Source: an uncultured archaeon
Lineage (GTDB): Archaea > Asgardarchaeota > Hermodarchaeia > Hermodarchaeales > Hermodarchaeaceae
Reading direction: 5' to 3'
Length of the DNA stretch: 64,000 bases
Assembly: GCA_964347045.1 (NCBI GenBank)
Contig: CAYFXC010000007.1
Location: 23,853 to 87,852, forward strand
Made by a program: the position numbers and the translations under genes. Under the pieces are notes generated by a model. It had not been told where the DNA came from, made no database searches, and saw only the letters and a list, made by a program, of their open reading frames with translations. This document shows positions 48,637 through 50,397 of this stretch, in pieces. Numbering within the stretch: position 1 is the stretch's first letter; each line of letters starts with the position of its first letter.

Positions 48637-48649
48637 GGAAAGCTTTTTG
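48637..48649 (+). promoter_or_regulatory. BRE/TATA-like promoter of tRNA-His
   Basis: GGAAAGCTTTTTG matches the GAAA-n-TTT(A/T) elements upstream of other genes in the window (e.g. near 23446, 26946, 48170). Confidence 0.4.
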
Positions 48650-48691
48650 TGGGAGGGCTTGGTTCAACATTTCTTCGTGCCGGGGCACCGT

Positions 48692-48846
48692 GCCGGGATT
48701 ATGTTGGTAAGTATTTACCAGCTCCCGAAGGTGTAAACTGGTAATTACCCAGGCGCAATGGTAGCATTGAAGCCTGTGGAACCCTATCCTCATGGATAGG
48801 ATGCTGAGAGCTTTAGGTCGGGGTTCGAATCCCTGTCCCGGCACCA
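48692..48846 (+). tRNA. tRNA-His(GUG) with three introns: 8/9 (48700-48729), 15/16 (48737-48758), 37/38 (48780-48808); A73, CCA encoded, no encoded G-1
   Basis: Acceptor GCCGGGA/TCCCGGC; T arm CGGGG-TTCGAAT-CCCTG; anticodon GTG at 48776-48778; the spliced product is a complete cloverleaf with an A15:U48 pair; lies immediately upstream of hisS. Confidence 0.85.
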
Positions 48847-48861
48847 TTTTTCACTATCAAC

Positions 48862-50397
48862 ATGAATAATAGAGAGAAGTACGAACATGAGTTGATGAAA
48901 ATGAAACGCGGAAAAGATCTAGCCGTTGGTGGATTTCGAGATTTCTACCCTGAACTTTATCAACGAATTGATAGAATACTTCAAGCCTTCCGTGAGACTC
49001 CTAAATTGTTTGGTTATATCGAATATGAGTGCCCAACAGTTGAACCACTAGAACTATATCAGTTGAAATCCGGACCATCACTCGTTGAAGAAACTTTCAA
49101 AGTCACAGATCGCAAAGACCGGCAGCTTGTATTGCGTCCAGAAACAACACCCTCTCTTGCTAGGATGCTTGCCGCCCAACAGCAGTATTATCCACGCCCA
49201 ATACGGTGGTTTTCAATTTCGCGCGTATTTCGAGATGAAACCCAACAACGAGGGCGCGTTAAGGAATTTTGGCAATTGAATGTCGATATTTTAGGCACCG
49301 AAGATGTCGCCGCTGATGCCGAAGTTATCAACGTGCTCGCAGCAATCATTCTAAGCCTTGACTTCACACCAAAAGATTTCGTTATTCGGATCAATGACCG
49401 GCGCTTAATCCAAAGTTTCATCGAATCATTGAAACTTACCAATTACACAGAGATTATACGAGTCTTAGACCGGCGCGAAAAACTCTTACAAGAATCCATT
49501 GTTGACCGGCTCACAAAAATCGGTACCCCAGCAAAAAAAGCGGACCAAATTGCCCTCAAACTTCGTCATTTCTATATTGGAAAACAAAAAGCCGAACCAA
49601 AACTTCCAGCTTCTAAAGAAATTACAGAATTGAAAAAAAGTCTTCCACAACTTCAACGTCAGGCACTTATCAATGCACTTCGAAAAACGGGTATTACTCA
49701 ACAGGCAGCAGAACGACTCACTGATTTTTCTGCAATTCGAGGAACACCAAAAGATTTCCTTAAGGCCATGGATGACATAAAACTTGACAAATCAACTCAA
49801 CGAACCTTAGGCCCTCTTAGGCAACTCGCTATGCAATTGAATGACTTAGGAATAACAGATGTCTGTGAATTTGATGCAGGAATAGCCCGGGGGCTTGATT
49901 ATTACACGGGCATCGTCTTTGAAGCTTGGGACCGCCGTACGGGATTACCTCGAGCAATTGCAGGAGGAGGTCGCTATGATGATCTTGTCGGCATTTTTGA
50001 AGGACAACGACTGCCAGGGACTGGATTCGGTTTTGGTGAGACTGTAATTTTGGAACTTGCTGAAGAAATGAACTTGCTTCCACCCCCAGAACCACCCGCT
50101 GAAATCTATTTAGCTCCGGTCTCAAAGAAACAACTAAGCAGTTGTCGAGAAGTCGCCTCACTCCTCCGAGCAGCGGGAATAAGGACACTTTTCAATGGTT
50201 TTTCATGGTCACTAACCAAACATCTTGAGGATGCCAGTAAACGTCAGATCCCATTTGTTGCTATCATTGGACCTCAAGAACTTGCCAAAAAGGTCGCTAA
50301 TGTCCGTGATATGAAGACTGGTAAAGAGCAGTCAGTTAAGATCACAAAATTAGCAGATTTCATTCAAGAAAAGCTTCAAAAAAGAACCAAATCTTGA
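48862..50397 (+). CDS. hisS: Histidyl-tRNA synthetase
   Basis: GFRDF.P, LRPETTP, RGLDYYTG, GGGRYDDL, anticodon-binding C-domain; start may be a little further downstream. Confidence 0.96.
   Translation: MNNREKYEHELMKMKRGKDLAVGGFRDFYPELYQRIDRILQAFRETPKLFGYIEYECPTVEPLELYQLKSGPSLVEETFKVTDRKDRQLVLRPETTPSLARMLAAQQQYYPRPIRWFSISRVFRDETQQRGRVKEFWQLNVDILGTEDVAADAEVINVLAAIILSLDFTPKDFVIRINDRRLIQSFIESLKLTNYTEIIRVLDRREKLLQESIVDRLTKIGTPAKKADQIALKLRHFYIGKQKAEPKLPASKEITELKKSLPQLQRQALINALRKTGITQQAAERLTDFSAIRGTPKDFLKAMDDIKLDKSTQRTLGPLRQLAMQLNDLGITDVCEFDAGIARGLDYYTGIVFEAWDRRTGLPRAIAGGGRYDDLVGIFEGQRLPGTGFGFGETVILELAEEMNLLPPPEPPAEIYLAPVSKKQLSSCREVASLLRAAGIRTLFNGFSWSLTKHLEDASKRQIPFVAIIGPQELAKKVANVRDMKTGKEQSVKITKLADFIQEKLQKRTKS

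Follow-up and report, generated by a model that had tools for sequence, protein, structure and literature searches.

A candidate acceptor-strand decoy in the leader of a three-intron tRNA-His gene from an Asgard archaeon

Introduction

Archaeal tRNA genes can carry non-canonical as well as multiple BHB introns, as has been documented for Thermoproteales, DPANN and Asgard lineages (PMC4090602, PMC4033280, preprint 10.64898/2026.10.13.758758), and the route by which such introns arrive in Asgard tRNA genes is left open by the 2026 preprint. A role of flanking, non-tRNA sequence in splicing has been described for split and permuted tRNAs, in which complementarity between leader and trailer builds the BHB (Nanoarchaeum, Caldivirga, Thermofilum and Cyanidioschyzon; PMC3218864, PMC3978253). 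In keeping with this, the two reviews of archaeal tRNA introns (PMC4090602, PMC4033280) use the word ‘leader’ for split or permuted tRNAs only; it has no occurrences in the Asgard tRNA-intron preprint (10.64898/2026.10.13.758758), nor does it appear in the Atabeyarchaeia paper or the 2025 EndA structure paper. In the literature covered by our search, which leaves out some older key works, we found no published description of a leader that mimics the acceptor strand in a contiguous tRNA gene, just as the initial annotation of this locus knew of none.

Here we analyse the tRNA-His(GUG) gene in a window of 64,000 nt, i.e. the whole stretch of DNA under study, whose numbering is used for all bare coordinates below. 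The window comes from a 2.58-Mb MAG (G000) that is 89% complete and encodes two EndA paralogues (188 and 199 aa) as well as an RNase P RNA (177 bits). The EndA genes are located in the regions G000 C7:6355-6609 and C1:239537-239797. The leader of this gene contains a copy of the acceptor 5′ strand that we interpret as a probable decoy in the splicing of an intron at position 8/9.

Results

Neither ARAGORN nor Rfam calls a tRNA in the raw window because the tRNA-His(GUG) gene (48692-48846) is split over four exons by introns at 8/9, 15/16 and 37/38 (Table 1). When the three introns are removed in silico, ARAGORN calls a 74-nt tRNA-His(gtg) with a cloverleaf and a GUG anticodon. We fixed the exon/intron structure with the help of intron-less genes of the sister genus and of the archaeal cut-site rule, according to which the four bases ending 2 nt before one cut pair with the four that end 2 nt before the other. 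All three introns have a predicted 4-bp central helix (H) flanked by 3-nt bulges, and the junction left by intron 1, GCCGGGAU joined to GGUGU, is the sequence found in the intron-less genes. Among relatives, indels in intron 2 are confined to the loop of its h′ hairpin. Alternative parses of the D-arm with GCGC/GCAU, or with an intron between positions 26 and 27, were ruled out: the 15/16 BHB parse was kept because a G-to-A change in G009 and a 3-nt insertion in G012 fit nothing else. The gene is neither split nor permuted, its exons being colinear, contained within 155 nt and served by a single promoter. As a separate observation, a conserved alternative hairpin at 48752-48776 (CAGGC-G-CAAUG-GYAG-CAUUG-AA-GCCUG), which reaches from the 3′ end of intron 2 into exon 3, is the dominant element of the predicted folds and stands in competition with the BHBs of both intron 2 and intron 3.

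Table 1. Features of the tRNA-His(GUG) locus (window coordinates).
Feature	Position	Strand	Remarks
Putative BRE/TATA-like promoter element, GGAAAGCTTTTTGTG	48637..48651	+	Invariant or nearly so in 12 congeners and the sister genus
Leader copy (candidate decoy) of the acceptor 5′ strand, GTGCCGGGG	48677..48685	+	Mimics positions -2 to 7; complementary to 48836-48844
Spacer, CACC	48686..48689	+	Complementary to exon 2 G9-G12; predicted to provide intron 1 with its outer BHB helix (h); base-paired in the MFE structure
True positions -2 and -1, GU	48690..48691	+	No encoded G-1; AA in G009, AU in G017
Exon 1, GCCGGGAU, tRNA positions 1-8	48692..48699	+	Invariant across relatives; equals intron-less sister-genus genes; ARAGORN on spliced sequence
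Intron 1 (8/9), 30 nt	48700..48729	+	h′ arms 48703-48710 / 48715-48722; CCCG 48724-48727 pairs with C3-G6
Exon 2, GGUGUAA, positions 9-15	48730..48736	+	Relatives; sister-genus genes; ARAGORN on spliced sequence
Intron 2 (15/16), 22 nt	48737..48758	+	H GUGU:GCGC; h′ CUGG:CCAG with variable loop; removal gives cloverleaf
Exon 3, positions 16-37, anticodon GUG	48759..48779	+	ARAGORN on spliced sequence; relatives
Intron 3 (canonical 37/38), 29 nt	48780..48808	+	Absent from 3/4 sister-genus genes; h′ hairpin covaries
Exon 4: anticodon stem 3′ strand, T arm, acceptor 3′ strand UCCCGGC (48836-48842), A73, encoded CCA	48809..48846	+	

The usual archaeal and bacterial form of tRNA-His has G-1 opposite C73. 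Here an encoded G-1:C73 is absent, the gene having U-1 (48691) and discriminator A73 (48843), with positions -2/-1 varying among relatives (GU, AA, AU); a search of the 89%-complete genome for Thg1 (PF04446) gave no match. The HisRS gene hisS (48862-50397) begins 15 nt past the CCA of the tRNA.

Upstream of the gene, CGTGCCGGG is present at 48676-48684 and, 13 nt further on, at 48689-48697, where it constitutes the true 5′ end of tRNA-His; the same two positions had been picked out in the initial annotation, along with the capacity of the upstream copy to form 9 bp with the 3′ end of the tRNA. This helix, GTGCCGGGG (48677-48685) with TCCCGGCAC (48836-48844), consists of eight Watson-Crick pairs and a terminal G-U. 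The annotation had also stated that the BHB of intron 1 makes use of tRNA bases 1-6. The borrowing of acceptor bases stands and its extent does not: the central helix is formed by C3-G6 with CCCG (48724-48727), a 4-bp helix at the positions set by the cut-site rule, and bases 1-2 at most extend the outer helix. The real acceptor 5′ strand can therefore not serve the acceptor stem and the splice motif together. The bulges predicted for intron 1, A7-U8-U and A-A-G9, agree with the rule, and its h′ hairpin covaries; with h coming from the leader spacer and extra unpaired bases (GUGC) opposite the 3′ bulge, the predicted motif is relaxed there. The pairing of the spacer with G9-G12 had been overlooked in the annotation; the pairing of the leader with the 3′ strand, the other part of what now appears as a two-part clamp, had been proposed there. 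Taken by itself, a 9-nt repeat is unremarkable, with ~9 loci in the window carrying 9-nt direct repeats no more than 30 nt apart as compared with ~8 expected from Markov shuffles; the significance of the repeat comes from its position, conservation and recurrence.

As for position, the first T of GGAAAGCTTTTTGTG lies 35 nt before the leader copy, and in ordinary tRNA genes of the same genome 32-41 nt separate this element from +1. The same spacing from element to leader copy, 34-41 nt, is found in the tRNA-Leu, -Ser and -Thr genes described below, and in all four genes the real 5′ ends are displaced to 12-42 nt downstream of the copies. From this spacing we place the transcription start a few bases before the leader copy, and promoter geometry thus agrees with the earlier suggestion that a promoter-like element would start transcription just ahead of it. 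The copy would accordingly be part of the transcript, and its location suggests that this is where +1 lay ancestrally.

Promoter, copy, spacer, exon 1 and intron 1 occur in the same arrangement in 12 full-length congener loci and in one more that is truncated by the contig end. To see whether the leader copy co-occurs and co-varies with the 8/9 intron in related genomes was a check proposed in the initial annotation. The copy is kept in 14/14 genomes with the intron (13 congeners and G017 of the sister genus) and is absent from 3/3 sister-genus genomes without intron 1 (G015, G016 and G018). Across the 12 full-length sequences, the helix between copy and 3′ strand is 99% paired and that between spacer and G9-G12 is 100% paired. 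Changes in the leader helices are one-sided and of the wobble type (three C-to-U and one G-to-A): in the copy, C gives way to U at position 3 and G to A at position 7, and the spacer variants UACC and CACU remain paired through G-U. A U at the helix end is the sole exception, and leader substitutions almost always preserve pairing. Because the partner strands are invariant exon bases, double-sided covariation is impossible in the leader helices, and the one-sided changes are therefore consistent with leader pairing rather than proof of it. The C3-G6:CCCG pairs are retained in 12/12 genomes, one of them as G-U. In the hairpin of intron 1 the sequence has been overhauled over that same evolutionary span, and 6/8 pairs show compensatory changes.

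The HisRS proteins of the two genera are only ~65% identical. In the sister genus, G017 has both the 8/9 intron and a homologous leader, GUGCUGGGA, followed by ACGC, which is able to pair with G10-U13. In G015, G016 and G018, GUGCCGGGAU lies 28 nt after TTTTT, i.e. at the same distance from the TATA element as the copy in intron-bearing genes. In a HisRS tree that took in two of these three intron-less genomes (G016 and G018), the sister genus is monophyletic and the intron-bearing G017 is sister to G016 plus G018, which points to one loss of both intron 1 and copy and makes the co-loss a single evolutionary event. Recombination between the direct repeats after intron loss would yield exactly the spacing seen.

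We then scanned the whole genome, matching the T-arm/3′-acceptor strand of each tRNA against upstream complements. The scan found three 8/9-intron genes, namely tRNA-His, tRNA-Leu(UAA) and a tRNA-Ser(UGA) on contig C59, and in each the leader copy matches the gene's own acceptor strand (GCCGGGG in His, GCGGGGG in Leu and GUCGGGA in Ser; 13, 42 and 17 nt upstream, respectively). In ~35 other tRNA genes of the genome there is no leader copy within 60 nt. A tRNA-Thr(GGU) of another Asgard family has the copy GCCCCGG 12 nt upstream, which is kept in 5/5 genomes, and here the intron interior and the spacer diverge. In support of the placeholder idea, three further 8/9-intron tRNAs (Leu, Ser and Thr) each have a copy of their own acceptor strand. 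With a strict 7/7 pairing test over all sequences compared, 20-22 of the 25 with an 8/9 intron pass, and the remainder have a slightly degenerate copy; among other tRNAs ~4 of ~105 pass by virtue of a chance heptamer, all of them GU-rich or limited to a single genome. In all four tRNAs the central BHB helix falls on acceptor bases 3-6, although in Leu the run of G lets folds shift to 4-7, and the spacer that follows the copy pairs with the start of exon 2 (e.g. CACC:G9-G12 in His and GAGC:G10-C13 in Thr).

The tRNA-Leu(UAA) gene (G000 C1:237963-238117, L031, minus strand) has a 23-nt 8/9 intron and a conserved 35-nt leader beginning GCGGGGG, which is antisense to the D-arm and the start of the anticodon stem in exon 2 and would act as a 35-nt clamp. 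Substitutions in this leader are mostly of the wobble type, with a few breaks, each in a single genome. By eye, the leader looks like a degenerate repeat of the first third of the tRNA itself, D-arm included. The tRNA-Ser(UGA) gene (G000 C59:1388-1552, L032) is a second gene for this tRNA, located on a 2.8-kb contig. It is interrupted at 8/9 and again by a canonical intron of 13 nt, and its leader copy can form 10 bp with the 3′ end, G73-C75 included. No structural orthologue of it turned up in the 20 relatives searched, and it may therefore be a strain variant, a mobile copy or contamination.

Further candidates were tried and rejected. The tRNA-Pro(GGG) gene (G000 C1 near 211,000, minus strand), first taken for an 8/9-intron gene without a copy, has a D-loop intron in which the acceptor is uninvolved; this intron is 28 nt long, with a palindromic CUAG:CUAG central helix, and is flanked by a CTAGAT duplication. 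It also contains GACCGGC, complementary to acceptor bases 3-8. Rfam tRNA matches in G024 that start at model position 9 were considered as additional 8/9-intron genes, and Thr alone qualified. Two other loci caught our attention along the way. L052 (G006:C36:2706-2804) is a second copy of the 3′ two-thirds of tRNA-Leu(UAA), 94% identical, whose upstream region, GAAGGGGC, lacks the complementarity needed for pairing to the 3′ acceptor strand; the locus may represent a split gene, a rearranged one or a pseudogene. L163 (G024:C5:19311-19370 region) is an initiator-type tRNA (AGCGGGG acceptor) with an apparent intron inside the T-loop. Overall, ARAGORN finds only 33 tRNAs in G000 and the Rfam tRNA model no more than 16 in G024, which is 95% complete: a considerable fraction of the interrupted tRNA genes in these two genomes escapes standard tools.

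We modelled precursor and spliced folds, together with pair probabilities, using ViennaRNA. For the His precursor the predicted probabilities are 0.89 for the copy with the 3′ strand, 0.98 for the central helix, 0.83 for the spacer with exon 2 and 0.00 for the true acceptor stem; across the wild-type precursors P(H) is 0.85-0.98 and P(copy:3′ strand) 0.89-1.0. If the His leader is replaced by a 3-nt, a sister-genus-type or an A-rich one, the true acceptor rises to 0.98-0.99 and the central helix drops to 0.01. Changing the copy heptamer alone to AAUAAUA in Ser and Thr gives P(true acceptor) ~0.98 and P(H) ~0, and leader removal acts likewise in His, Ser and Thr; in Leu the heptamer-only mutation does not restore the true acceptor in the model. 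Shuffled GC-rich leaders still allow the H helix in 21/30 trials. The same model predicts next to no BHB formation (probability ~0) for intron 2 or for intron 3, the canonical one, and its absolute values are therefore unreliable. With this qualification, the model favours the earlier proposal that the copy would hold the 3′ strand before splicing, the copy being predicted to pair with P ~0.9 and the BHB helix to form with 0.98 in its presence as against 0.01 without it.

Before splicing, the leader-bound, BHB-competent His fold is favoured by 7.3 kcal/mol. In the fully spliced His RNA the leader-bound fold (-39.4 kcal/mol) is still 3.3 kcal/mol more stable than the true-acceptor fold (-36.1 kcal/mol), and after in silico splicing P(copy pairing) remains 0.91-1.0 in all four tRNAs. 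Displacement is therefore unexplained by secondary-structure energetics, and the notion that the leader copy is displaced once intron 1 has been removed does not hold as a spontaneous event in the prediction. Release would have to draw on tertiary folding of the tRNA, on a GUGC/GCAC hairpin within the leader, on the binding of RNase P or on some further factor.

Discussion

Introns near the 5′ end of a tRNA create a folding conflict, in that the splice motif and a very stable acceptor stem need the same bases. Our preferred reading, to which we give a probability of about 65%, is that the leader of pre-tRNA-His is a functional decoy and clamp for splicing at 8/9. On comparative evidence, the core idea of the initial annotation, a placeholder for the 3′ strand that is tied to the 8/9 intron, is well supported. 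Since CACC pairs with the start of exon 2, the leader would clamp both the 3′ strand and exon 2, and so extrude exon 1 and the intron as a BHB.

The mechanism might operate as follows. One part of the leader, GUGCCGGGG, would pair with the 3′ acceptor strand as a mimic of the acceptor 5′ strand, and the other, CACC, would engage the first bases of exon 2, G9-G12. With both parts in place, the GC-rich 3′ strand would be unable to sequester the real 5′ strand and the BHB would gain its outer helix, with exon 1 and intron 1 extruded as a stem-loop in which C3-G6:CCCG pairing lets the splicing endonuclease cut at 8/9. Ligation would lower the bias towards the leader-bound fold from ~7 to ~3 kcal/mol. 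At that point the leader could fold on itself through GUGC/GCAC, and the tertiary folding of the tRNA, the binding of RNase P or both would finish the change-over to the true acceptor stem, with the leader being removed. On this reading the copy presumably pairs in vivo and would be needed for splicing, and splicing may precede RNase P cleavage, as suggested in the initial annotation.

The main rival is that the copy is a non-functional footprint, an ancestral exon 1 or a duplication from the arrival of the intron that was left in the leader and has not decayed. Such an origin would account for a copy situated exactly at the +1 position of ordinary genes and of the intron-less sister-genus genes, for a Ser copy that runs into a degenerate copy of the first exon-2 bases, for the resemblance (again by eye) of the Leu leader to the tRNA's own D-arm, and for copy position 7 being free to vary. 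A mere relic would, however, have had to persist since the split of genera with HisRS ~65% identical, over a time in which the intron interior became unalignable. Its changes are biased to transitions that preserve pairs, four gene families that differ in acceptor sequence share this architecture, and the copy vanishes along with the intron. We regard a footprint without function as improbable, yet still the most serious competitor; an origin as a footprint and a present function may well be compatible.

The remaining alternatives are far less probable. The two copies could delimit a fourth, mini-intron: their palindromic CCGG motifs would pair as a central helix, 13 nt (48686-48698) would be excised and the upstream copy would become the mature 5′ strand. 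By sequence inspection, CCGG:CCGG with 3-nt flanks obeys the cut-site rule in His and Ser, and mini-introns of 12-13 nt do occur in this genome. The scheme fails for Leu, which has no palindrome, and for Thr, where the cuts are out of register; only 6 nt are available, with no h′ helix possible; the conflict between acceptor and BHB would return for intron 1; and the downstream copy, with U8, is invariant, whereas the upstream one shows variation at positions 3 and 7 and, in G013, a deletion. A related candidate, in which EndA makes the mature 5′ end through a CACC:GGUG central helix and a cut at -1/+1, was rejected: His is in register, yet the other cut would come to lie within exon 2, and for Thr the geometry does not work. 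Archaeal integrative elements duplicate parts of tRNA genes, and the copy sits at the predicted transcription start, which lends some initial appeal to an att-type partial duplication left by an integrative element, or to a promoter-proximal or initiator DNA element. We rate both as very unlikely, given that the sequence follows each tRNA's own acceptor strand with no common motif and that nothing but RNA pairing on this strand accounts for the C-to-U changes. As to an att remnant, the copies are 4-35 nt apart (just CACC in His) with no integrase or element; at the tRNA-His locus neither a target-site duplication nor an att remnant is recognisable, and the downstream flanking ORF is HisRS.

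A leader-encoded decoy, our favoured interpretation, would explain how near-5′ introns are tolerated and predicts an enforced order of maturation steps. A much wider generalisation, which we put forward tentatively and regard as doubtful, is that acceptor-strand decoy and exon-2 clamp make up a general, undescribed class of cis-acting leader, obligatory wherever an archaeal BHB borrows acceptor bases and fixing the order of processing, with the decoy being the retained original exon 1 because it sits at the ancestral +1. If this were true, introns of this kind would arrive downstream of the former 5′ end, either by insertion of a cassette made up of a new exon 1 and the intron or through partial duplication, and for one intron class there would be a concrete answer to how Asgard tRNA introns are gained. 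For annotation, a TATA element spaced as usual from what is only a pseudo-5′ end, with the real 5′ end and an 8/9 intron further on, is a simple signature that could help to locate heavily interrupted tRNA genes that tRNAscan, ARAGORN and Rfam miss.

The principle of a competing strand that holds a segment until an earlier processing step is done is familiar from the anti-terminators of attenuators and from U3 snoRNA/5′ ETS pairing, which delays the 18S central pseudoknot. To these the tRNA-His leader is an analogy of principle only, with no sequence or family relationship. The introns themselves are of the known archaeal BHB type, those at 8/9, 15/16 and 37/38 being predicted to share the 4-bp helix and 3-nt bulges, and this genome has two EndA paralogues, as is the case for the broad-specificity heterotetrameric enzymes. 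Works on archaeal BHB introns (PMC4090602, PMC4033280, 10.64898/2026.10.13.758758) describe the introns and their motifs but not the leader element. The closest likeness is to split and permuted tRNAs, where flanking non-tRNA sequence also pairs to build BHB helices for EndA. There, the leader joins two transcripts or permuted ends and is cut off by EndA at the BHB; the tRNA-His described here, by contrast, is encoded by a contiguous gene whose leader the BHB cuts do not remove, and a segment of that leader would occupy the 3′ end as a mimic of the acceptor strand.
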